A stretch of 32,000 nucleotides of DNA from Clostridium aciditolerans (GTDB taxonomy: Bacteria; Bacillota; Clostridia; Clostridiales; Clostridiaceae). The DNA lies in assembly GCF_016316925.1 (NCBI RefSeq), contig NZ_JAEEGB010000035.1, positions 167,063-199,062 of the forward strand, read 5' to 3'. This document shows positions 11,370 through 29,986 of the stretch, piece by piece. The notes under the pieces were generated by a model. It did no database searches. It had not been told where the DNA came from and worked only from the letters and a program-made list of their open reading frames with translations. The translations under genes and the position numbers were made by a program. The stretch's first letter is position 1. Every line of letters starts with the position of its first letter.

Positions 11370-13492
11370 TTGAATATTGAAAAGAACCTTATTCTTATAA
11401 AGAATGAAGATAAAACAGAAGAGGTTACATATTGTAAAAGGTCTAATCAAAAGTGTGACATTACTTTTAAAAATAATAAAACTTATACATATAGCAATTA
11501 CAATGTTGTGTGGAGTACCAATTTTATAGAAATTGATACACAAACAGTTATTGCCTACGAAAATAAAATTCCAATATCAGGTATAATTAAGATTATTAAA
11601 TTCCAAGAGCATAATTATATTAGATTAATATTTAAAACTGGATATCATAAGTTATATCATGTATCAGAGATAACTATAGAAAAGAATGCTTTAGAAAATT
11701 CAGCCTCTAAGAATTGCTTTACATATTTAAAGGAGCTTGCAAGTAATATTGATTTTGAAAATGATAATGATTTTATTAGTAAACAGTTTGAAGCTATGAC
11801 TGCCATTAGTCCAACCAGTGTTTTAGCTAACTATTTGAATCCAAAAACAATAAGACATTTAAAAAATAATAAACAAATAATATTTCCTTTTGGATTTAAT
11901 ATAAGTCAAAAAGAAGCTGCAGAAAAAGCTTTGAATAATCAAATTAGCATTATTGAAGGGCCACCGGGAATTGGAAAAACTCAGACCATACTAAACATTA
12001 TTGCAAATGCTATTATAGATAATAAAACAGTAGCTGTTGTTTCAAATAATAATTCTGCTACTTTGAATGTTTTTGAAAAACTTAAGAAATATATACATTA
12101 TATAAAAGATTTAATAAAAGTAAAAACAGAACGATTTTTGATGAAAATGCATTGTGGAAAAAATTTAGTAATTTCATTAACGAATATCCTATAATACTTA
12201 GTACAACTCATTCTTTAAGAAAATGTGCAAGTAGGAATTATTTGTTTGACTATGTTATCATAGATGAATCTTCCCAGATTGATATAGTTACTGGGGCTTT
12301 GGCTTTTTCCTGTGCTAAAAATGTTGTTATTGTAGGAGATTTAAAACAGTTGCCTAATGTAGTTACTAAAGAAAATAAAGATATTAGTAATAGTATTTAT
12401 GATAGATATAAGTTAAATGAAGCCTATAAATATTCAGAGAATAGTCTGCTATCTTCAATAAGCATGCTATATAGTGAGGTACCTAAGACATTACTCAGGG
12501 AGCACTATAGATGTCATCCTAAAATAATAGATTTTTGCAATAAGAAATTTTATGATGATCAACTGATTATTTTAACGGATGAAAGTTCCTGTGATAAACC
12601 TTTAGAAGTGTATAAAACAGTAAAAGGTAATCATGAAAGAAACCACTATAATCAAAGACAAATAGATGTAATATTAAAAGAAATAATTCCAAAATTAAAA
12701 GAAAATAAATCTGTAGGAATAGCGTCACCTTATAGAAATCAGATAAAGGAATTAAAAGATGTTATTAGTAGTGAAGATATTGAAATTGATACAGTACATA
12801 AATATCAAGGAAGGGAAAAAGAAATAATGATCCTTTCAACGGTTTCAAATGAAGCAAATGATTTTATGGATAATGCTAATCTTCTAAATGTAGCCATATC
12901 AAGAGCGGAGAATAAATTAATTATCGTTGTTTCTGACAATGAAGAATTACTGAATAGCAGTAATATTGGAGATTTAATTAGATATATACAATATAACAAC
13001 CTGGAAATCATAAATAGTAGTATATATTCTATATTTGACTTGCTATATAGTTCATATTCAGAACAATTGCTGGAGTTTATTAAAAAGAATAAAAAAGTTT
13101 CTAAGTATAATTCTGAAAATTTAATGAATTCGTTAATAGAAAAAGTATTAGCTTGTGAAGAATTCAAGTCATTAGGTAAGGTTTTACACTACCAACTTAA
13201 TATGCTTATTCGTGATACTTCGAAATTAGATGAAAAAGAATTAAAATATGTAACAAATCCATTAACTCATGCTGATTTTTTTATATTTAGAAAGATAGAC
13301 AAAATGCCTGTTTTAGTGGTAGAGGTAGATGGATATGCCTTTCATTTGAATAATCCAGAGCAATTGGAACGGGATAAGATGAAAGATAGAATTTTAGCGA
13401 AATATAATATACCAATATTAAGATTACCTACTAATGGAAGTGAGGAAGAAAAGAAGCTTAAAGAGAAACTAATTGAGGTATTGAATATTTAA
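11370..13492 (+). pseudogene. Disrupted SF1 (Upf1/DNA2-like) helicase with a C-terminal DUF2726/Vsr-like nuclease domain
   Basis: ORF 11370..12194 carries Walker A GPPGIGKTQT. ORF 12152..13492, in a different frame that is open from 12086, carries motif II VIIDESSQ, REHYRCHP, VHKYQGREKE and the C-terminal VVEVDGYAFH...RDKMKDRIL nuclease-like module. The frame switch lies at about 12086-12110. The I-to-II spacing looks short, so an internal deletion is likely. Confidence 0.7.
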
Positions 13493-13808: not shown

Positions 13809-15002
13809 ATGAATAGTATTATATTGATATCAATAATATTAGAGATGATAAAAATAAATAATAATTTAATTTCTATGGAGCCATATAAAGATATTTTCAT
13901 TAACATACTGACAAGGGATATCGATTTTAAAGATGCAATTTTAGATTTAGTAGACAACTCAATTGATGCTGCTAAGAAAACTAAAAAAACAAACGATTTA
14001 ACAAACTTTGAAATTAAAATAACAATTGATAAAAGCAAATTTGTAATAAATGATAACTGTGGAGGCATTAGTATAGATACTGCTACAAAGTCTGCATTTA
14101 GATTTGGCAATGATAAGACAAGCAGTCATGATGATCAATCAGTAGGAAGATTCGGCATTGGTATGAAAAGAGCTATTTTTAAAATAGGAAATATGATAAC
14201 AGTTGAGGCAGCAACAGAAAAGGAATATTTTAAGGTAATAATTGATGTGCTTGATTGGCAAAAACAGAAAGATTGGGATATTAAGTTCAAGCAGGTAATA
14301 GAGAATAAAAATAAAATGGTTGGGACAACCATTAAAGTAACCAATCTTAAAGAAGATACAACAAGGAAATTTACCCAAGGTACTTTTATAGTAGCTCTTG
14401 AAGAATCAATAAGAGAAAAGCATAGTGATGCCTTAGAGAATGGTATAAGAATTACATTAAATAACTTTGTTATCGATCCATTACCTAAAGAAAAACAGGT
14501 AAAAGTTACTGAACTAAAAATAAAGGAGAAGGGATTTACAGGTTCCATTTCTGTATATAAAGCTGAATGTAATAAAAAACTAGCCGGATGGTATATAAAA
14601 TTTAATAATCGTGTAATTATAAAAGCTGATAAGTCACAGCTAACAGGTTGGGGACTTTCGAAGATAAGAGATAAAATGAAGACGGGGGAATTTGAAGAAA
14701 GGTTTTCTTCTTTTAGAGGATATGTAGACTTAAAGGATACTAAATTTAGAATGTTACCTTTTAATACAACAAAGAATTCAGTTAATACAGACTCCGAGGA
14801 GTATGAGAAAATACTAGATTATATGGTTGAAGCTATGAATAAATCTATGCAGCATTTTCGTGATTTAGGATTAAGATGCATTTCATATAAGAGACCTGTT
14901 GAGCAGGTGACAAAACTTATGAAGTTATTAGATTTTAAATATGCTAAGGACGTTGGGGAGTATACTTACGATCAATATATAAAACACAACAATATTAAAT
15001 AA
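13809..15002 (+). CDS. GHKL (Bergerat-fold, MORC/MutL-like HATPase_c_3-type) ATPase
   Basis: Motif I LDLVDNSIDA, motif II INDNCGGI (DxGxG) and G2 box GRFGIGMKRA. The true start is uncertain (ATG at 13809, 13845 or 13875; none has a strong RBS). Confidence 0.75.
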   Translation: MNSIILISIILEMIKINNNLISMEPYKDIFINILTRDIDFKDAILDLVDNSIDAAKKTKKTNDLTNFEIKITIDKSKFVINDNCGGISIDTATKSAFRFGNDKTSSHDDQSVGRFGIGMKRAIFKIGNMITVEAATEKEYFKVIIDVLDWQKQKDWDIKFKQVIENKNKMVGTTIKVTNLKEDTTRKFTQGTFIVALEESIREKHSDALENGIRITLNNFVIDPLPKEKQVKVTELKIKEKGFTGSISVYKAECNKKLAGWYIKFNNRVIIKADKSQLTGWGLSKIRDKMKTGEFEERFSSFRGYVDLKDTKFRMLPFNTTKNSVNTDSEEYEKILDYMVEAMNKSMQHFRDLGLRCISYKRPVEQVTKLMKLLDFKYAKDVGEYTYDQYIKHNNIK

Positions 15003-15124
15003 GAACAAATGTTTGTGCAATTACTGGTAAAGTAAACCATACTATATCTATAAGTATTGGAGGGATATAGTATGGTTTATTCGTTTGTTGAAAAGAACTC
15101 TATTATGAAACTTTAATAAAAGAA
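14612..15124. repeat. Direct repeat copy 1 (~513 bp): 3' end of the GHKL gene, the intergenic region and the first codons of an Rpn gene
   Basis: Aligns base-for-base with 21087-21597. I count ~20 substitutions in the first ~480 nt. Similarity decays after 15094/21569. Confidence 0.9.
15072..15116 (+). pseudogene. 14-codon stub of an Rpn-family gene (MVYSFVEKNSIMKL*)
   Basis: Same RBS (GGAGGGATATAGT-ATG) and first 8 codons as the intact gene at 21547, then a premature stop. Scattered residual similarity continues to about 15200. Confidence 0.55.
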
Positions 15125-15244
15125 AAAGTCAAAGCTAAGGAATAGATAAAATCTGTAAATGTGTGAGATATTATGATGTTAATTTACATTTTTTAATATT
15201 AAAGTTAATTTTATGGGAGGAAAATAATTTATTTTATCGAATTA

Positions 15245-15274
15245 TATACAAATAACTATAAATTATTTGGAGGT
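15245..15274 (+). repeat. Left copy of the inverted 26-nt leader/RBS repeat (candidate recombination core site)
   Basis: CAAATAACTATAAATTATTTGGAGGT at 15249-15274 ends 6 nt before the ATG at 15281. Internal palindrome CAAATAA-CTATAAA-TTATTTG. The outer arm is TATACAAATAA (15245-15255). Confidence 0.85.
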
Positions 15275-15280
15275 CACTGT

Positions 15281-17731
15281 ATGCTAACTTTAAAACAGCA
15301 TGGAATTTACTCAGAAATAGAAAAAATAATATCAGTTAATAGTAATACTGATTATATTTATTTTGAGGGCCCAACAGGAAGTGGAAAATCAAAAATAATC
15401 CTAGATTTTATTTCAAATGTTTTAAGCCAATTCGAGAATTGGTCTTTTTATTACATAGAAGGTAAAGACCCCTTTGTAGAATCATATGCCACCATTACAC
15501 TTTCGAATTCAGATAAGACTAAGTCAAATAAATATCAGTTATCAAATGTAAATTTTAATTTGGGGTTTAGTATACCTGCAATAATGAGTTTGGGTATTAC
15601 AACTAGTTTTAAAAAGAATAGCATATTTGACGATAAAACAAATTCTGTATTAGTTGAACTAAATAAGCATGAAAATGAGAACATTGTAATAGTAGCAGAT
15701 AGTTTTCAACTATGGGATTCTGCTTCTCAAGAATTATTAAATACTATTATTAATTATCCTAATGTAATAAAAGGCAAAAGAGTGATAATTTTAATTATAG
15801 CTGATGAAGATGATCCTATTATAGAAAAATGTGATTATATTAATAGGTTTAAGAAAAAAAGTCATAATATAAAAATCAAAATGCTTGACAGAGATGAATT
15901 GAAAGAAATTTCAAAGGTTTTAGGCTATACCATTGGTCTGAGTAATGAACTAAAAGATATTATTATGTCGATAACAGGTGGAAATATTAGTTTTATAAAA
16001 ATGTTTCTTGAAGAATATACAGATTCAAAATCAGATAATTTTATATTAAATTATAATAATATAGATATTATGAATTTATTAGATAACCGCATGGAGCAGT
16101 TTGGAGAAAAAAAAGCTGATTTCATGGAGGTTTTGGAAGTATCTTCAATTCCTAAAGGTGCATTTAATTCAACTGAAATACAATATCTTTATAATAAAGA
16201 TGTAGTTGATGTGGAGAATGTTTTAGACGAATCGCAAAAAGCATCTATTTTAAAAGGTGAAATAGAATTTATGTTTTCTAATTATTTAGTTAGAAACTTA
16301 TTTTATAAAAAACTAAACGGAAAAAGTAAAATATTTCATAAAAAGTATGCTGAGTATTTAAAGAAATACAAACCTGAAAATTATATCAGTAGAGCATATC
16401 ATTTGAAATTATCGAATTTAAACGATACTATTGAAATAATTAATTTACTATCAATAGCTTATTGTAGAAGTTTAGAAAACAATAACAATTTCTCTGAATC
16501 AAATTCAATTTTAATGCAAATTGAAAAATTGAAAGATGAATCGTCAAATGATAGAGAAGTAATGAATTTATATGATAATTTTATTAATTTAAAATCTGCA
16601 TACGAAAGTTATTACCAAGAAAAGTATGATGAAGCTAATGATGAATTATTAAAAATTCCAGCAATAGGCCCTTTTCTATTTACAGCAGAAGTAGCCAGAT
16701 TTCATCTTATTGTAAAATCATTACTAGATATGGATACTGAAAATATATATGAAGCAGCTAAGGTTTTAAATGAAAAAATGAATGATTTATATATAGATGA
16801 AAGAGATGAATGGTGTCGATGTGCATTGGTACTCTTTTCTACCTATGCTAATAAATTAAATGATTGTAATTCTAGTAAAGAAGTTTATACTCAATTAGGA
16901 AAATTAATATCTAAATCTTATAATAATAGCAGTCTTCAGTATTTGAAGAATATAATATATAGAAAAGCTTGCATCTTTCAAACACCAGTAGAAGCTGAGA
17001 GGAGTACTTCTGAAAGTATAAAGTACTTTTATGAAAATGGAGATATATATCAATATTATATGTCATGTTGTAATCACTCTGGAAATTTAATTATTTTAGG
17101 TAAGTATGATGAAGCAATATATTCTTTATATGCTTGTCTAAATTCAATTAGAAAATATAAATTTATTAAATTCCCGACACAGCAAAAAATATATAATAAT
17201 CTATATTTGGCCTATTTCTTACGAAATTATCATAGTGATACTATTTCAAAAGAATATATAATTAAAATGAAAAGGAAGTTTGAAAAATTAATAAATGACC
17301 AATATAACGAGAGCAATGCAATCATACATATAAATTTGATTAATATCTGCGCTATTCTAGGAGAATATAATGAATGTTTTATAAAACTCAATACTCTTGA
17401 AAATGATATATTGGATAATAATGATGATGAATTTTACAAATATTATTTGTATAATATAAAGTTTGCACTAAATTCATTAACCCAAAATTGGGACGAAGCA
17501 GCTAAGAATTTAAATGATTTAAATAACTCTTTTCCTAATTATTTTACAAAGATAAAACGAAAAATAAATAACCGTAACAAATCTCTCCAACTTTTACTGG
17601 ACGATAAAATAACTTTATCACCAAAAGAATTGGATAAATGGATATATAAAAATTCAAAAAAGGACGATTGCTCTTGCAACTTTTTCTGTAGGTTATTTCT
17701 TTTTTCAGATTTACAATTTACTTCATTATAA
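15281..17731 (+). CDS. P-loop NTPase with a long TPR-like helical repeat region (STAND/AAA_16-like architecture, no recognisable effector domain)
   Basis: Walker A FEGPTGSGKSKI near the N-terminus and Walker B-like NIVIVADSFQLWD. About 450 aa of helical repeats follow (e.g. AYESYYQEKYDEANDEL, GKYDEAIYSLYACL). Strong RBS GGAGG. Confidence 0.7.
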   Translation: MLTLKQHGIYSEIEKIISVNSNTDYIYFEGPTGSGKSKIILDFISNVLSQFENWSFYYIEGKDPFVESYATITLSNSDKTKSNKYQLSNVNFNLGFSIPAIMSLGITTSFKKNSIFDDKTNSVLVELNKHENENIVIVADSFQLWDSASQELLNTIINYPNVIKGKRVIILIIADEDDPIIEKCDYINRFKKKSHNIKIKMLDRDELKEISKVLGYTIGLSNELKDIIMSITGGNISFIKMFLEEYTDSKSDNFILNYNNIDIMNLLDNRMEQFGEKKADFMEVLEVSSIPKGAFNSTEIQYLYNKDVVDVENVLDESQKASILKGEIEFMFSNYLVRNLFYKKLNGKSKIFHKKYAEYLKKYKPENYISRAYHLKLSNLNDTIEIINLLSIAYCRSLENNNNFSESNSILMQIEKLKDESSNDREVMNLYDNFINLKSAYESYYQEKYDEANDELLKIPAIGPFLFTAEVARFHLIVKSLLDMDTENIYEAAKVLNEKMNDLYIDERDEWCRCALVLFSTYANKLNDCNSSKEVYTQLGKLISKSYNNSSLQYLKNIIYRKACIFQTPVEAERSTSESIKYFYENGDIYQYYMSCCNHSGNLIILGKYDEAIYSLYACLNSIRKYKFIKFPTQQKIYNNLYLAYFLRNYHSDTISKEYIIKMKRKFEKLINDQYNESNAIIHINLINICAILGEYNECFIKLNTLENDILDNNDDEFYKYYLYNIKFALNSLTQNWDEAAKNLNDLNNSFPNYFTKIKRKINNRNKSLQLLLDDKITLSPKELDKWIYKNSKKDDCSCNFFCRLFLFSDLQFTSL

Positions 17732-18814
17732 TGAATTCAATAGATTCTTATATCTTAAGTAAGTCATACCGATTATGGTTGAGTAAATTTCATTATACGG
17801 AATACATAAATTTTCAAATGCAAAAGCAAAAGAACTATGTTTTGTTGTGTATGGAGTTGAAGCAATATCAATTAAATAGGGGTTGCCAAAATTATCAATT
17901 CTAAAGTCAATTCTACCATAATTTTGTAATCCAATAATTTTACCTATTTTTGCTGATAATTCTTGAATAAATAAACATTGTTTTTTGTTTATTACCTCGG
18001 ATAAGTTATAAAAATTATAATCATCCTCAAATGAACGTTCATAAGTTAAAATTTCTGTGCTTAGATTAGGATTATTGTTAATTGATATACCTACAGGAGA
18101 CATAGTATGTACTTTATCAGAGATTATAAGTGGAACTTCGCATTCAAATCCAGATATAAATTCTTGTACAAACAGAGCTTCTTTTCTATTAATAAATATA
18201 TTTTCTAAAAAATCTAAAGAATTTTTATTGAAAGTATTAATTGAGTTATTGTCCATACCTATACTTGCGGATTCAGACATAGACTTTACAATAATTTGTG
18301 TTCCTATAGTAGGTTTAGAATCATTAAGCCATTTATTTTGGCCAATATATATCCAACTTTTAGGTATAGGTATACCATGCGCTTCTAAATATTTGGAATA
18401 TGTATATTTAGCTCTGCATAATGAAATTACAAATGCATTTGAGCCAGTATATGGTACTGTTATGAGGTCACAAAATGATGGAATGAGAGATTTTTTTCCT
18501 GGCTTTTTACCGTTTCTTGCTAAATTATAAACAATCTTGTTTTCAATGTTAAATTTTTTGTTTAATATATCAGACATAAAATTTATTTCATTAAAAAAAG
18601 CATGTACATAAAATTCTGAAGTCTGGATACCATCTAAAATTTCTGAATATTCTTCATCAGTAAAAAACTCATTTTCATCTGAATATTGTATTTCCATATT
18701 TTCAATAATCTTTGTTTTTGAACGAGAATTACTAATTAGAGCAATTTCAACTTCTTGATTAATGTTTGAAGTTGCTTTAAGTATTCTGTCAATAGTATTT
18801 TTTATTTCATTCAT
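17726..18814 (-). CDS. ATP-grasp enzyme of the D-alanine--D-alanine ligase family
   Basis: PYTGSNAFVISLCRAKYTYSKYLEAHGIPIP, IVKSMSESASIGM and GRIDFRIDNFGNPYLIDIASTPY match the Ddl-type ATP-grasp layout. I place the start at ATG 18814 (MNEIKN; GGAGG 6 nt upstream) rather than the track's 18859. The stop overlaps the convergent 816-aa gene by 6 nt. Confidence 0.75.
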   Translation of the reverse strand: MNEIKNTIDRILKATSNINQEVEIALISNSRSKTKIIENMEIQYSDENEFFTDEEYSEILDGIQTSEFYVHAFFNEINFMSDILNKKFNIENKIVYNLARNGKKPGKKSLIPSFCDLITVPYTGSNAFVISLCRAKYTYSKYLEAHGIPIPKSWIYIGQNKWLNDSKPTIGTQIIVKSMSESASIGMDNNSINTFNKNSLDFLENIFINRKEALFVQEFISGFECEVPLIISDKVHTMSPVGISINNNPNLSTEILTYERSFEDDYNFYNLSEVINKKQCLFIQELSAKIGKIIGLQNYGRIDFRIDNFGNPYLIDIASTPYTTKHSSFAFAFENLCIPYNEIYSTIIGMTYLRYKNLLNSL

Positions 18815-18820
18815 AATAAA

Positions 18821-18850
18821 ACCTCCAAATAATTTATAGTTATTTGGAGG
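18821..18850 (-). repeat. Right copy of the inverted 26-nt repeat, extended to an 11-7-11 palindrome
   Basis: 18821-18846 is the exact reverse complement of 15249-15274. The arms are CCTCCAAATAA (18822-18832) and TTATTTGGAGG (18840-18850), with spacer TTTATAG. It lies 15 nt from the recombinase stop codon (18866-18868). Confidence 0.85.
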
Positions 18851-18865
18851 TATTAGCATAAAAAA

Positions 18866-19804
18866 TTAAATCTTTAAAAGATTCCTAGCATTAAATTTTA
18901 ATAAAACCTGTTTCTTCCTTTCAGTAGATACCTCTGTATATATCTGAGTAGTAGTAATACTAGAATGGCCTAGTATTTCCTGTACAGATCTAATATCCGC
19001 CCCATTATTTAAAAGTTGAGTTGCGAAAGTATGTCTAAGATAATGAGGAGTAGATTTTGTATCAATTCCTGCTAGCTGTCTGTATTTTTCATATATATTT
19101 TCAATTGAATATATAGAAAGCTTGTCACCATATTTATTGATAAAGAGAGCATCGCATTTTGGGTTTAAATTTTCTCTTTCTATAATCCAAGTATTGAGGA
19201 TATTTATAACATCGGTACTGGATATAAATAGAAGTCTATCTTTTCTTCCTTTACCGTGAATCAAAAGGGTTTGTTCTTCTAAGGTTATATCATTTAATTC
19301 AATGTTAACAAGTTCACCTATCCTTATACCTACACAATACAATAATTCAATTATTGCTGCATTTCTTATGCTAATAGTCTTTCTGAATTCTGTCTGAATA
19401 TCTTTTAATTCTTCAATTGGTGATTTTAAAAGTTTTATTATATCTTGAGAGGGTAAAGTTTTAGGAAGTTTTTTTGAAGTTTTAAAGGAAATTCTCATAT
19501 TATCAAAAGGTGACTTACTTATAATATAATTATTGACTAAATATTTAAAAAAGGATTTTAAGGAAACATATTTTCTTTTTATTGATGTATCTTTCATTTC
19601 TTTGATATTTTGTAGCCAAAAAATATATGAGTTTATGGTGCTAATATTTATAGTGTTAATTGAGTTTTCTTTCAGCCACCTCAAAAAGCTTGATAAATCC
19701 GAATAGTAAGCTTTAGTGCTTTTTTCAGTGAGATTTCTTTCTATTTTAAGAGTACTTATATAATTATTAATGTTATCACTCATAATTTTTACATTACATT
19801 CCAT
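18866..19804 (-). CDS. Tyrosine recombinase, XerC/XerD-like
   Basis: The full catalytic set is present: GIRIGELVNI (Arg), HGKGRKDR (Lys), HYLRHTFAT (His-x-x-Arg) and LGHSSITTTQIYT (His...Tyr). An N-terminal SAM-like domain is also present (LTEKSTKAYYSDLSSFLRWL). The start is placed at ATG 19804 (GGAGGA 5 nt upstream); the track's 19828 is a TTG. Confidence 0.9.
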   Translation of the reverse strand: MECNVKIMSDNINNYISTLKIERNLTEKSTKAYYSDLSSFLRWLKENSINTINISTINSYIFWLQNIKEMKDTSIKRKYVSLKSFFKYLVNNYIISKSPFDNMRISFKTSKKLPKTLPSQDIIKLLKSPIEELKDIQTEFRKTISIRNAAIIELLYCVGIRIGELVNIELNDITLEEQTLLIHGKGRKDRLLFISSTDVINILNTWIIERENLNPKCDALFINKYGDKLSIYSIENIYEKYRQLAGIDTKSTPHYLRHTFATQLLNNGADIRSVQEILGHSSITTTQIYTEVSTERKKQVLLKFNARNLLKI

Positions 19805-19854
19805 AGTCTTCCTCCAATTCTTCTGCAATAATATTATAAATAAATTACAGAATT

Positions 19855-20343
19855 ATGTCGATATGTGAAAGACAAATAGATAAAAAAAGCTTAAATAATG
19901 AAGAGCTTACTAATGAGGAAATATTGGGTCTTACGTTTATACCATTAATGAAAGGAAAATTAACTAGAACGGAAAGAACCATAAAAAGTATAGAATTAGC
20001 AAATAAGATAGAAACAGGAGAAAAAAAGATAAAGTGTCTTACAATGCTATATGCACTTTTAGAGAAGTTTGGAGATGAAGAAAGTAAGAAAAAATTCAAG
20101 GAGGTATTTAATATGACTGAGATAGGTAAAATGATATTGGAAGATGGAATGGCAAAAGGGATGGAAAAAGGAAGAGCTGAAGGAAAAGTAGAGCTTTTGC
20201 TTAAGCAATTAACTAAAAAATTCAAAAAAATACCGGAAGAATATAAAAAAAAGATAAAAGAATTGCCAGATGAAACACTTGAAATAATAGGGTTAGAGAT
20301 ATTTGATATAGAAGATATTAAAGAGCTGGAGAAATATTTTTAA
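19855..20343 (+). pseudogene. C-terminal fragment of an Rpn-family (YhgA-like PD-(D/E)XK) recombination-promoting nuclease/putative transposase
   Basis: Only the C-terminal half is present (LTMLYALLEKF...ILEDGMAKGMEKGRAEGKVELLLKQL, the GxEKGxxxG tail typical of Rpn proteins). The N-terminal nuclease core is absent. Confidence 0.6.
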
Positions 20344-20525
20344 TTTATAAATTTGGAGTAGAAGCTATTGTCATATAACAACTGGTGGTGCTCCAATAGA
20401 TATAGTTAAAGTTGATAGTTTAGCATTAATAAATAAAGAAAATTGAAATGGTAAAGACACCTGGAATCAAATTCTTGAGGAAAGCTTTGTATATTAATTA
20501 TGAGAATAAGGTAGGAGGTACACAA

Positions 20526-20705
20526 ATGAAATGGGAGGATGTAAGAAAGCAATATCCTAATATTTTTGTAAAGTTTGAGATAGTTGAATCTCATATTGAA
20601 GAGGATAAGGAAATAGTAGACGAAGTTGCTTTTATTAAGGCTATTAAAGACGGAAAAGAAGCTATGGTGGAACATTTAAAATGTAAAAATAGTCAGTATG
20701 TATAT
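20526..20705 (+). pseudogene. 3'-truncated small ORF (MKWEDVRKQYPN...) running into the antisense of the SRP RNA
   Basis: Strong RBS AGGTAGGAGG before ATG 20526. From about 20703 the reading frame is simply the antisense of ffs, so the listed 140-aa product (20448..20870) is not credible as a whole. Confidence 0.45.
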
Positions 20706-20948
20706 CGTGCACCCACTGTTGACCTAGTTAGCTCAAACCAGGTTGTTCCACGGCACTTAAAAGTGATCACTTACCGCTGCTTCCTTCCGGATCTGACGGA
20801 GTTCATGAGTTTCTGCTGCATGGGACCCAGTTCTCAATACCACTTTGACCAGGCAGGCCCAACAGACTAAAGTCTATAGGGGGAATTCAATCCTGCTGTA
20901 GCGGATTGCAGGTTACAGGGCACCGCTGGCTCCCCATCTAGCACGAAT
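20703..20948 (-). ncRNA. ffs: Signal recognition particle RNA, long Bacillus/Clostridium type (scRNA/4.5S homologue with Alu domain)
   Basis: The minus strand reads GTCAGATCCGGAAGGAAGCAGCGGTAAG (conserved domain IV) and GCGGTGCCCTGTAACCTGCAATCCGCTACAGCAGG (Alu domain, near-identical to B. subtilis scRNA as I recall it). The 5' TCGTGC pairs with the 3' GCACGA. A GC-rich island in AT-rich DNA. Ends are accurate to +/-5 nt. Confidence 0.88.
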
Positions 20949-21086: not shown

Positions 21087-21597
21087 TGTAATTATAAAAG
21101 CTGATAAGTCACAGCTAACAGGTTGGGGGCTTTCGAAGATAAGAGATAAAATGAAGACTGAGGAATTTGAGGAAAGGTTCTCTTCTTTTAGAGGATATGT
21201 AGACTTAAAGGATACTAAATCTAGAATGTTACCTTTTAATACAACAAAGAATTCAGTTAACACAGACTCCGAGGAGTATGAGAAAATACTAGATTATATG
21301 GTTGAGGCTATGAATAAATCTATGCAGCATTTTCGTGATTTAGGATTAAGATGCATTTCATATAAGAGACCTGTAGAGCAAGTGACAAAACTTATGAAGT
21401 TATTAGATTTAAAATATGCTAAGGATGTTGGTGAGTATACTTATGATCAATATATAAAAAACAACAATATCAAATAAGAACAAATGTTTGTATAATTACT
21501 GGTAAAGTAAACCATACTATATCTATAAGTATTGGAGGGATATAGTATGATTTATTCGTGTGTTGAAAAGGATTATTTTATAGCTTTAATAAAAGAA
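21087..21597. repeat. Direct repeat copy 2 (~511 bp)
   Basis: See copy 1 (14612-15124). The offset between copies is 6475 bp. Confidence 0.9.
21088..21477 (+). pseudogene. Orphan 3' fragment (about 129 codons) of a GHKL ATPase gene
   Basis: The translation is about 95% identical to the C-terminus of the 13809..15002 product. A stop lies immediately upstream (21082-21084), and there is no N-terminal ATPase domain. Confidence 0.85.
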
Positions 21598-22641
21598 GAA
21601 AACAATAATTATGGAGGGAAGAAGAGAAAAAATCATATTCAGATGGATAAAATTTTAAAGCGTTTATTTACACTAAAAAACACTATACCAATTATAGATT
21701 TTCTTAACGCAGCCTATAATGACGATATATCTTATGAAGCTAAACTATATTATGCAGATAAGGAAATTAATAATTTTGAAAAGAAAAGTAGCCGCTACAT
21801 AAGTTATTATGCTGATATGTATATAAAGGTTATAGATAAGAAAAACGTTTATGAATATGAAATAGAATTTCAAACAATTTATGAAAATAGTATGGTTATA
21901 AGAATGTTTAGATATGGTTTTGAGAGAGCAGTAAATATCTCATACTACAATAGTATAAAGGAAGGTAGATTAAGAATAAAATTACCAGAACCATATCTTA
22001 TAGTGTTAGAAGAAGATAAGAATGTACCTAACAGTATATACTTAGAAATAGAGATTCCAAAGCAAGATACAATTACATATAGTTGTAAAGTATTGAAGTA
22101 TTTTAGCTATGATATTGATAAACTATTAAAGGAAAATATGTATCTACTGCTGCCACTGCAGGTATTTAGATTAAGAAAGAAAATGTATCAAATAAGTATT
22201 AGTAATCTACTCTTTGAAGAAAAGAAAAGTAAAATGATCGACGTGTATAATGAATTGAAAATAGTTATAGAAGATACTTTAAAAGCTATAGATTTATCGT
22301 ATAATGGTAATAAGATAACTTTAGAAGATTATGATGAAATGACATCTACTATAGAAAACATTAACTCATATTTTTTAGGCATGTATGGAAAATATACAGA
22401 TTTTGATGAGGAGGTTAGGGAAATGGTGAAGAGCTTTTATGATCCTAAGGTTGAAGAAAGAGGAATAGAAAAAGGAATAGAGAGAGGAAAGATACAAGGT
22501 AAGATTGAGGAAAAAATTGAAACAGCAACAGAGATGATTAAAGATGGAGAGCCTATAGAAAAAATCAAAAAGTATACAAAGCTAGATGAAAATAAGATTT
22601 TGGAATTAATAAAACAAATAGGAACTGAAAAAGTTCAATGA
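21547..22641 (+). CDS. Rpn-family recombination-promoting nuclease/putative transposase (PD-(D/E)XK)
   Basis: YADMYIKV...YEYEIEFQT matches the D...ExQ nuclease core. The C-terminal tail is ERGIEKGIERGKIQGKIEEKIE. The start is placed at ATG 21547 (GGAGGG 7 nt upstream) rather than 21532. Confidence 0.75.
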   Translation: MIYSCVEKDYFIALIKEENNNYGGKKRKNHIQMDKILKRLFTLKNTIPIIDFLNAAYNDDISYEAKLYYADKEINNFEKKSSRYISYYADMYIKVIDKKNVYEYEIEFQTIYENSMVIRMFRYGFERAVNISYYNSIKEGRLRIKLPEPYLIVLEEDKNVPNSIYLEIEIPKQDTITYSCKVLKYFSYDIDKLLKENMYLLLPLQVFRLRKKMYQISISNLLFEEKKSKMIDVYNELKIVIEDTLKAIDLSYNGNKITLEDYDEMTSTIENINSYFLGMYGKYTDFDEEVREMVKSFYDPKVEERGIEKGIERGKIQGKIEEKIETATEMIKDGEPIEKIKKYTKLDENKILELIKQIGTEKVQ

Positions 22642-29626: not shown

Positions 29627-29986
29627 GGTAATTCACCGACCTTAGCTTTAGTTTAGATTACACTTAATATATATGTAAAGTTAAAGAAAATGGGAAAGGA
29701 AAAAGTGTTAATGAATTGTAAACATTACAGTATTACAACTTTTATAAAGTAGATAGAGTAGTAATTTTGTTTTTATGATCCCTGGCTTGTACTATAAAAT
29801 ATACATTTTTGTTATTTTGTAATAGTTGTATTTAGTTAATGGAAAAGCTTTATTTTGAAGGGGTAAGAGGATTACAGACTGTTGTAAGTGTGGAGTAATT
29901 GATGTAATGTTTTGATATAACTAAAATAGGAACGGATGTTTGTGTAAAAGCTGAAAATTGGACCAATACTATAGTTAAGTAAAATT

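Follow-up and report, generated by a model that had tools for sequence, protein, structure and literature searches.

What does a recombinase gene do beside two genes that converge, overlap and encode unrelated enzymes? The question is raised by a 32,000-nt stretch of the Clostridium aciditolerans genome (hereafter, the window), which is AT-rich (~25% G+C). Within it, genes for a STAND-like ATPase and an ATP-grasp enzyme meet tail to tail, and a gene for a Xer-like tyrosine recombinase adjoins the second (Table 1). The original prediction for this DNA had described the trio, with a 6-nt convergent overlap, as one inserted module. The three genes and the overlap are real, as the list of open reading frames (ORFs) and the sequence of the overlap confirm. 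The key feature of the locus, which the prediction missed, is a pair of inverted recombination sites at the ends of the two-gene cassette. We consider it highly likely that the ATPase and ATP-grasp genes form an invertible 3.6-kb cassette, which the adjacent, dedicated recombinase inverts as a gene switch.

A repeat search identified an inverted repeat of 43 nt, perfect over a core of 26 nt, just 5' of the start codons of both cassette genes. Each copy contains two inverted 7-nt arms with an asymmetric 7-nt spacer between them, and the two sites are mutually inverted. Such an arm-spacer-arm layout is the anatomy of tyrosine-recombinase core sites. We refer to the sites as proximal and distal, with respect to the recombinase gene. 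In either site, the inner arm continues into the GGAGG Shine-Dalgarno (SD) sequence of the neighbouring gene. The outer arm of the distal site is degenerate beyond AAATAA. At the proximal site, the outer arm has an extra CCTCC (18847-18851), which complements the SD sequence of the ATP-grasp gene. Note that a 21-nt site pattern occurs exactly twice in the 5.26-Mb genome, in inverted orientation, while a control pattern does not occur at all. Logically, since the sites are inverted, recombination between them would invert the 3.6-kb segment, rather than delete or excise it.

The arrangement is widely shared. An alignment of 21 ATP-grasp homologues served to fetch 80 loci from named genomes. The taxa include Paenibacillus, many Clostridia, Lachnospiraceae, Oscillospiraceae, Streptococcus, Enterococcus, Acholeplasmataceae, Gordonibacter and Ruegeria, together with one Cryomorphaceae and one Thermoanaerobaculia metagenome-assembled genome. 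The cassette spans several phyla: it is found in Clostridium, Paenibacillus, Streptococcus and gut Lachnospiraceae, as well as in Actinomycetota, Bacteroidota and Pseudomonadota. It was found in none of 400 sampled genomes of the phylum (E-value 1e-40). Iterated profile searches of ORFs placed the ATPase gene convergent with the ATP-grasp gene at every locus with a long enough contig. Of 57 homologous cassettes, about 30 have genes that overlap tail to tail, by 4-55 nt. Across the fetched loci, inverted dyad sites flank the convergent pair. The core sequence is identical in Clostridium, Brevibacillus, Paenibacillus and Enterococcus; between Clostridium and Brevibacillus this is so although the proteins are only ~53% identical. 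Elsewhere, the arms co-vary by clade (AATAA..TTATT, GATAA..TTATC, GGATAAT..ATTATCC and GTGATAA..TTATCGG). In other clades the site lies further upstream, with the SD sequence outside it, and the architecture is nevertheless kept.

The recombinase is equally constant. For 37 loci, at least 1.5 kb is visible on both sides of the cassette, and in 33 of these the same recombinase family adjoins it, on the ATP-grasp side in 20 and on the ATPase side in 13. Note that the loci are phylogenetically related, so such counts overstate their independence. The adjacent recombinases belong to one family (jackhmmer E-values 1e-88 to 1e-136). No regulator gene is conserved beside the cassette in the fetched loci. 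The reading of the trio as a module is thus supported: the three genes are conserved together, and the ATPase/ATP-grasp pair is present in practically all 80 loci.

Comparison of closely related genomes detects inversion at the sites. Two Brevibacillus parabrevis genomes, GCA_031324325 (L020) and GCA_022701015 (L021), carry the gene pair in opposite orientations, between flanks that are 99.5-100% identical. On one side are a MerR gene, a gene for a Big_2 protein and the recombinase gene; on the other are Wadjet JetD/JetC genes. When aligned by blastn, the inverted segment is 3595 bp long, is 99.9% identical between the two genomes, and has breakpoints within a perfect 28-bp inverted repeat. 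The inner arms have moved with the cassette, while the outer arms have remained with the flanks. The same flank swap is apparent in Paenibacillus (L025/L026) and Streptococcus (L091-L100 compared with L102). Many assemblies break exactly at the sites, to leave 3.4-4.0 kb contigs with the cassette alone. Contigs that match the segment between the repeats in length (3.55-3.70 kb) carry many of the ATP-grasp homologues; one of them, L022 (3576 bp), contains only the two genes and ends within the site.

Orientation is also unstable over longer distances. On a maximum-likelihood tree of ATP-grasp proteins with 37 tips, the orientation state changes at least 12 times, compared with a mean of 11.5 for shuffled labels. 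Since orientation is as random as shuffled labels, the state is not inherited along the phylogeny, as would be the case for a fast, reversible switch. Even identical ATP-grasp proteins are found in both orientations. The inversion model is strongly supported by this comparative evidence: very probably, the 3.6-kb ATPase/ATP-grasp segment is flipped by the neighbouring recombinase, between inverted lox/dif-like sites. The recombinase would thus be the catalyst, and we infer that inversion is going on within clonal populations.

A further contig (L040, CAVKUW010000095.1, 5960 bp) repeats the 3' end of the recombinase gene, in inverted form and over at least 195 nt, so that the cassette has one copy on either side. 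Most simply, this would be an assembly of a population holding both orientations.

The recombinase matches the Pfam families Phage_integrase (PF00589, E-value 1.5e-42) and, for its SAM-like N domain, PF02899 (E-value 7.4e-13). Its translation contains the catalytic motifs of such enzymes: GIRIGE (Arg), HYLR (HxxR), GHS (His) and IYT (Tyr). When compared with NCBIfam models, it scores 252.8 bits for XerC and 244.5 bits for XerD, both below the respective cutoffs of 335.15 and 329.6. Its identity to the other two Xer-like genes of the genome is only 33-37%. Judged by its sequence, the protein is a dedicated Xer-like paralogue. It is best read as a putative invertase, swapping which gene faces which flank.

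Table 1. Positions of the cassette, its sites and the surrounding features in the window
Feature	Position	Strand	Remarks
816-aa ATPase gene	15281-17731	+	ORF list and Pfam
ATP-grasp ORF, 377 aa	17726-18859	-	likely start ATG 18814, giving 362 aa (17726-18814)
Recombinase ORF, 320 aa	18866-19828	-	likely start ATG 19804, giving 312 aa (18866-19804)
Tail-to-tail overlap TTATAA, 6 nt	17726-17731		ATPase and ATP-grasp genes
Recombinase-distal site	15249-15274	+	CAAATAA (15249-15255), spacer CTATAAA (15256-15262), TTATTTG (15263-15269), then GAGGT
Recombinase-proximal site	18821-18851	-	full palindrome ACCTCCAAATAA-CTATAAA-TTATTTGGAGGT; shared 26-nt core at 18821-18846
Promoter-like site of recombinase gene	19833-19861	-	TCGACA-17-TATAAT, 11/12; consensus match only
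Conserved transferable module, 4.67 kb	15201-19870		distal flank of 48 nt, distal site, ATPase, ATP-grasp, proximal site, recombinase and promoter region
520-bp direct repeat, left copy	14612-15132	+	HATPase_c_3 3' end, spacer, first ~25 Rpn codons (debris from 15057)
520-bp direct repeat, right copy	21087-21605	+	3' HATPase fragment and start of intact Rpn gene 21532-22641
Bacterial large signal recognition particle (SRP) RNA, full-length	20705-20946	-	RF01854, 162 bits

What might inversion achieve? The flanks would stay fixed, while the two genes are exchanged between the recombinase-proximal and recombinase-distal positions. The leaders found at these positions differ. As RNA, the proximal leader forms a 12-bp hairpin from the palindrome (-19 kcal/mol, z-score -5.7), which sequesters GGAGG. 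A terminator scan also detects this hairpin, as a 12-bp stem followed by TTTATTAT (a U-run). The distal leader is unstructured (-3.3 kcal/mol). In the clade to which the window belongs, all nine of nine loci have a proximal leader of -16 to -29 kcal/mol and a distal leader of -3 to -8 kcal/mol, whichever gene is proximal. Overall, the asymmetry is present in 25 of 37 loci; the Wilcoxon p of 0.0016 overstates the evidence, the loci being related. In other clades the arms are only ~7 nt long, so recombination does not require the CCTCC extension, which favours a role at the RNA level.

In the model that we propose, CCTCC in the proximal flank would complete the 12-bp hairpin and bury the SD sequence, while the distal flank, which has no CCTCC, would not. 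Hence, the distal gene (here, that of the ATPase) would be translatable. The proximal gene (here, that of the ATP-grasp enzyme) would be insulated from the recombinase transcript, or repressed. The original prediction had the ATP-grasp and recombinase genes co-transcribed; this is doubtful, given that the SD-burying hairpin and its U-run lie between them. It had also argued that the convergent overlap leaves no room for terminators, and the terminator scan found none between the ATPase and ATP-grasp genes. The TTATAA of the overlap is a palindrome, in which the TAA stop codon of either gene runs into the last codons of the other. Given two convergent genes with overlapping 3' ends and no intervening terminator, expression of one would send antisense transcription through the other, to give mutual antagonism at the RNA level. 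The net outcome would be a reversible and heritable switch, of an either/or or ratio type, between a STAND-like sensor NTPase and a Ddl-fold ligase. Note that which gene is expressed in each orientation is a prediction, made from the leaders.

The likely start codons in Table 1, for the two genes on the reverse strand, follow from ribosome-binding sites and the lengths of homologues. For the ATP-grasp gene, ATG 18814 has GGAGG 7 nt upstream and yields a protein equal in length to 362-aa homologues. For the recombinase gene, ATG 19804 also has GGAGG upstream, and the product equals 312-aa homologues. The promoter-like site of the recombinase gene should be read in the knowledge that promoter-like matches, in this AT-rich window, are as numerous as expected by chance.

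We turn to the proteins encoded by the cassette. The ATPase, a STAND/AAA+-like NTPase, contains an ATPase_2 domain (Pfam, residues 12-241, E-value 7e-10) with the Walker A motif GPTGSGKS at residues 30-37, of which K36 is invariant in 20 homologues. The AlphaFold2 (AF2) model has a predicted local distance difference test (pLDDT) score of 81. It consists of an N-terminal P-loop domain, a helical/winged-helix region (~260-345) and a TPR-like superhelix (~350-800). Fold matches identified by Foldseek are SAMD9, Apaf-1, Avs3, the archaeal ATPase_2 protein 2fna, ORC/Cdc6, plant NLRs and LGN-type TPR proteins, with the low template modelling (TM) scores (0.16-0.30 on the query) that a multi-domain protein would be expected to give. 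Neither Pfam nor the AF2 model reveals an effector domain: there is only the NTPase and repeats, and the Walker A motif begins at residue 30. The description of the protein as STAND-like, without a recognisable effector, therefore stands.

When the ATPase was compared with PADLOC-DB v2.0.0, the only match was a weak one, of the P-loop, to mad8 (E-value 3.5e-4, 46 residues). The same database returned no families for the ATP-grasp enzyme. On these results, we rejected the possibility of a known defence system.

The C-terminal tail of the ATPase ends in SDLQF, and this is conserved in homologues. Indeed, the last ~20 residues (D.SW.F.GRGF..SDLQF; window 17660-17728), where the 3' end of the ATP-grasp gene overlaps, are conserved in distant homologues. 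The conserved C-terminus could be a binding or modification tail.

The ATP-grasp enzyme resembles D-Ala-D-Ala ligase (Ddl), with a Pfam match to Dala_Dala_lig_C (E-value 4e-17). The AF2 model (pLDDT 90) has a three-domain ATP-grasp fold, and the best Foldseek matches are Ddl proteins (TM scores 0.71-0.85, 13-19% identity), over all three domains. Scores for the NCBIfam Ddl models NF002378 and TIGR01205 are 80.7 bits (cutoff 243) and 80.5 bits (cutoff 245.65). Similarly, all Van-type models give scores far below cutoff. We aligned the family with the genome's own Ddl, which is encoded by a canonical ddl gene elsewhere (contig C1). The ATP-binding lysines, the Glu-x-Glu motif and the Arg/Asp pair are retained, and columns K95, K136, E179, R246 and D248 (numbered as in that Ddl) are invariant. 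However, ELN of Ddl, which provides the Glu-x-Asn metal ligands, is D-[IV]-[AS] in all family members aligned. The segment of the omega-loop is unconserved, and the Lys-Tyr of Ddl is missing; nor are the substrate residues of Ddl retained. In E. coli DdlB, we take the omega-loop residues to be K215/Y216 and the Mg-binding residues to be E270/N272. In the fetched loci, no van or mur genes are conserved next to the ATP-grasp gene. The enzyme probably retains ligase activity, though not that of a D-Ala-D-Ala ligase. It had been foreseen that the enzyme might prove to be a routine housekeeping ligase; we rejected a housekeeping Ddl because the scores are below cutoff, Ddl residues are replaced and the genome has a separate canonical ddl.

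Some cassettes have a third gene, between those for the ATP-grasp enzyme and ATPase. Usually, this encodes a GNAT-type acetyltransferase of 140-165 aa, and it may face in either direction. Two loci (L078 and L083) carry a guanylate-kinase-like P-loop protein and a methyltransferase as further cargo. The extra cargo hints at small-molecule chemistry around the ATP-grasp enzyme. Loci with variant cargo are L047, L050, L055, L057, L078, L082, L083, L086, L088, L094 and L099. In L073, a Cys-rich 156-aa protein takes the place of the acetyltransferase.

The cassette and recombinase gene travel together. The closest homologues bear the name C. beijerinckii, which places the genome in the C. beijerinckii group. 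In C. beijerinckii CP014331 (L018), blastn detects homology to 15201-19870 of the window (87.9% over 4676 columns), which stops at both of these positions. The flanks are different: NERD, PDDEXK, McrBC-like and AIPR genes in CP014331; helicase, HATPase_c_3 and Rpn genes in the window. The module is also present on two plasmids. RefSeq labels the genes of the plasmid copy 'hypothetical protein', 'ATP-binding protein' and 'tyrosine-type recombinase/integrase'. None of 50,697 phage records contains it. The comparison bears out an inserted unit of ~4.6 kb, and the module is, on this evidence, a horizontally transferred accessory element. We rejected integration of the tRNA/att type, as there are no tRNA genes in the window, and no direct repeats or att-like sites at 15201 and 19870.

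Among the defence-type neighbours across loci are Wadjet, McrBC-like, AIPR, Kiwa, Lamassu, Thoeris, AbiE and PARIS genes. The nearest neighbours of 40 loci include JetD, KwaA/B, LmuA/B, ThsA, AbiE, AriA, AbiL, type I methyltransferases and AAA_21/AAA_15 ATPases, as well as genes of ordinary metabolism. The association of the module with defence islands is suggestive. Given its frequent placing in such islands, a role in conflict or defence would be its most likely purpose.

These observations allow a bolder reading, which is possible and which we put forward tentatively. The cassettes could represent a widespread, undescribed class of switch, in which a cell makes an NLR-like STAND sensor or a ligase for small molecules or peptides, but not both. 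The site, embedded in the ribosome-binding site, would let DNA orientation gate translation, and the two states would be alternative immune or conflict states, as a form of bet-hedging. Several findings weigh against the expression logic, or against the part played by defence. The full palindrome of the proximal site could serve DNA binding, instead of RNA structure. Consensus scans of the window, L018, L020 and L025 revealed no strong sigma-70-like promoter that is conserved on the distal flank. In Streptococcus, where the recombinase gene is divergent, there are -10-like boxes on both flanks and no hairpin asymmetry; the either/or logic may not be general across clades. Neighbourhoods are mixed, with many metabolic genes, and PADLOC has no model for the ATP-grasp enzyme or ATPase. 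As regards a promoter, in each of three contexts examined the outside gene on the distal side points the same way as the distal cassette gene, and read-through from the former into the latter is possible.

Could the recombinase instead be, mainly, the integrase of a 4.67-kb integrative island, with the inverted repeats incidental? The module certainly moves as a unit among chromosomal contexts and plasmids. It is rare, scattered across phyla, and the recombinase travels along. Yet its ends have none of the direct repeats or att-like sites that would mark such an element, and the dyad site occurs nowhere else in the genome than in the two inverted copies within the module, which would yield inversion and not excision. 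Between genomes of one species, the module keeps its place while the segment between these sites is inverted. Furthermore, the module lies in a 6.5-kb block with 520-bp direct repeats, indicative of homologous, rather than site-specific, insertion. We consider an integrase of this type unlikely. Hence, of the proposal that the trio is a single insertion, the transferable unit survives; the recombinase is not simply an island integrase, and the sites bracket only the two-gene cassette. A different view of the repeats is that they form a shared operator or leader that co-regulates both genes, inversions being rare accidents of homologous recombination. Indeed, the repeats sit exactly in the 5' leaders, SD sequence included, palindromes are typical of operator sites, and identity over 24-30 nt could allow occasional RecA-dependent inversion. 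However, an operator would not account for the arm-spacer-arm anatomy of tyrosine-recombinase sites, with an asymmetric spacer kept in inverted orientation, or for a dedicated recombinase in so many loci that share no regulator gene. In other clades the architecture persists with sites further upstream that lack the SD sequence. Orientation is random on the tree, which would require far more frequent events than accidents over 24-nt repeats. We regard this explanation as very unlikely.

The last alternative concerns the cargo rather than the sites. If the ATP-grasp enzyme were an ordinary cell-wall D-Ala-D-X ligase, either an alternative Ddl or of the Van type, then the ATPase would be unrelated cargo. 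D-Ala-D-Ala and D-Ala-D-Lac ligases are, after all, the best matches in sequence and fold. Set against this are scores far under every Ddl/Van cutoff, replacement of the omega-loop Lys-Tyr and Mg-ligand Asn throughout the family, the canonical ddl elsewhere and the lack of conserved van/mur neighbours. In addition, the partner is always a STAND-like ATPase. Such a role for the enzyme is extremely unlikely.

An invertible cassette driven by its own recombinase has parallels in known systems. In mycoplasmas, Xer-like recombinases switch the expression site of surface proteins, as for M. agalactiae vpma (Xer1) and M. pulmonis vsa (HvsR). There too, a dedicated Xer-like tyrosine recombinase is encoded beside the locus and short sites lie in 5' leaders. 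In mycoplasmas, inversion, which is reversible and heritable, brings another gene to the active expression position, as we propose for the cassette. Unlike the cassette, those loci are multi-gene arrays of paralogous lipoproteins, for antigenic variation, with one promoter. The cassette has exactly two genes, for unrelated cytoplasmic enzymes, in a compact convergent pair, and its site doubles as the SD sequence. The phage Mu G, P1 C and e14 P segments are switched by the serine invertases Gin, Cin and Pin, respectively. As here, a multi-kb segment has opposed gene sets between inverted repeats, with an adjoining invertase gene. In those phage segments, fixed expression signals outside ensure that one or other gene set is expressed, as would be the case for the cassette in our model. 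PinQ is a case of Gin/Cin/Pin-type inversion (PMC12529663). The serine invertases differ from our system in that they use an enhancer and Fis, and exchange alternative tail-fibre C-termini on a constant part; the cassette has a tyrosine recombinase, complete genes and cargo that is not phage structural. In the pdif (dif) modules of Acinetobacter plasmids, the host XerC/XerD act on resistance or toxin-antitoxin genes. Those modules likewise lie between inverted Xer-type arm-spacer-arm sites, in either orientation and varied contexts. In contrast, a dedicated recombinase travels with the cassette, and its sites differ from dif.

Two comparisons concern defence. Phase-variable hsdS invertons of type I restriction-modification systems use tyrosine recombinases (PMC7672463, PMC4948785). 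The similarity is that a tyrosine recombinase adjoins a defence-type locus, and hsdS inversion creates population heterogeneity. In that case, repeats within coding sequence reshuffle specificity domains, whereas here the repeats are in leaders and coding is unchanged. The ATPase resembles Avs STAND NTPases in having a P-loop STAND/AAA+ domain, a helical/winged-helix region and a TPR-like array, in the presence of Avs3 among its fold matches, and in its defence-island loci. It differs by having no fused effector, no PADLOC Avs match and, as partner, a Ddl-fold ATP-grasp enzyme in an invertible cassette. None of these analogues has the cargo of the cassette or a site fused to the SD sequence.

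A full-text literature search, which included a systematic survey of inversions (PMC9881135), found no description of the cassette. The sole paper in that search to combine the terms invertible, STAND and ATP-grasp concerns a Bacteroides capsule operon. Programmed inversions are known for surface antigens, fimbriae, tail fibres and restriction specificities, which they vary. A switch between two complete and unrelated cytoplasmic enzymes, one of them an NLR-like STAND NTPase, is undescribed in the literature searched. If the either/or logic is true, the cassette would be a natural case of translational gating by DNA orientation, and a new regulatory principle for immune-type genes. In that event, the compact pair of recombinase and 31-nt site could serve as a genetic tool. 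There are also consequences for annotation. Genes labelled 'integrase' in defence islands may be invertases and, in metagenome assemblies, short contigs broken at the sites hide cassettes.

Finally, we describe the DNA around the module. The copies of the 520-bp direct repeat are ~96% identical and bracket the 6.5-kb block, which also contains a DUF4351 ORF, a small ORF and the third SRP RNA gene of the genome. The direct repeat and the SRP RNA gene, too, had escaped the original prediction. In two relatives (G010 and G008), the HATPase and Rpn genes adjoin, with a single copy of the repeat; G010 is without the 6.5-kb block. This fits gain or loss of the block by homologous recombination. According to the original prediction, the module sits between pieces of Rpn gene debris. 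The left piece is confirmed: over its start, the intact Rpn gene (21532) matches 15057-15132 at 96% identity, with similarity gone by ~15200. The right piece (19855-20343, + strand) is from a different Rpn paralogue. It encodes 162 aa, with a DUF4351 match (E-value 1.3e-15) and an Rpn C-terminal motif. A relative (G006) has an 86%-identical, free-standing DUF4351 ORF of 139 aa elsewhere, between the equivalents of window positions 29916 and 29989. The DUF4351 ORF may be a small mobile Rpn-related gene, not debris. The possibility that the two pieces are halves of one interrupted gene was rejected, since the right piece derives from another paralogue and is free-standing elsewhere.

The two other SRP RNA copies in the genome are on contigs C65 (222 bits) and C72 (206 bits). 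Extra copies, ~90% identical, are found in variable regions of several genomes of the genus, and may be island-associated duplicates or integration targets. An ORF at 20448-20870 overlaps the SRP RNA, and its 3' part is probably spurious. To the left of the module, the overlapping ORFs 11370-12194 and 12152-13492 (together 11370-13492, + strand) resemble a split SF1 helicase, with AAA_11/AAA_12 domains and a DUF2726 C-terminus. PADLOC matches are strong to MkoC/MkoA and weaker to Hhe and PLuB helicases; this may be a frameshifted defence gene. Next to it, 13809-15002 (+ strand) encodes a GHKL ATPase (HATPase_c_3), weakly similar to MzaB and topoisomerase VI-B. In relatives, the HATPase_c_3 gene is paired with an Rpn gene, and the two may be a conserved two-gene unit.

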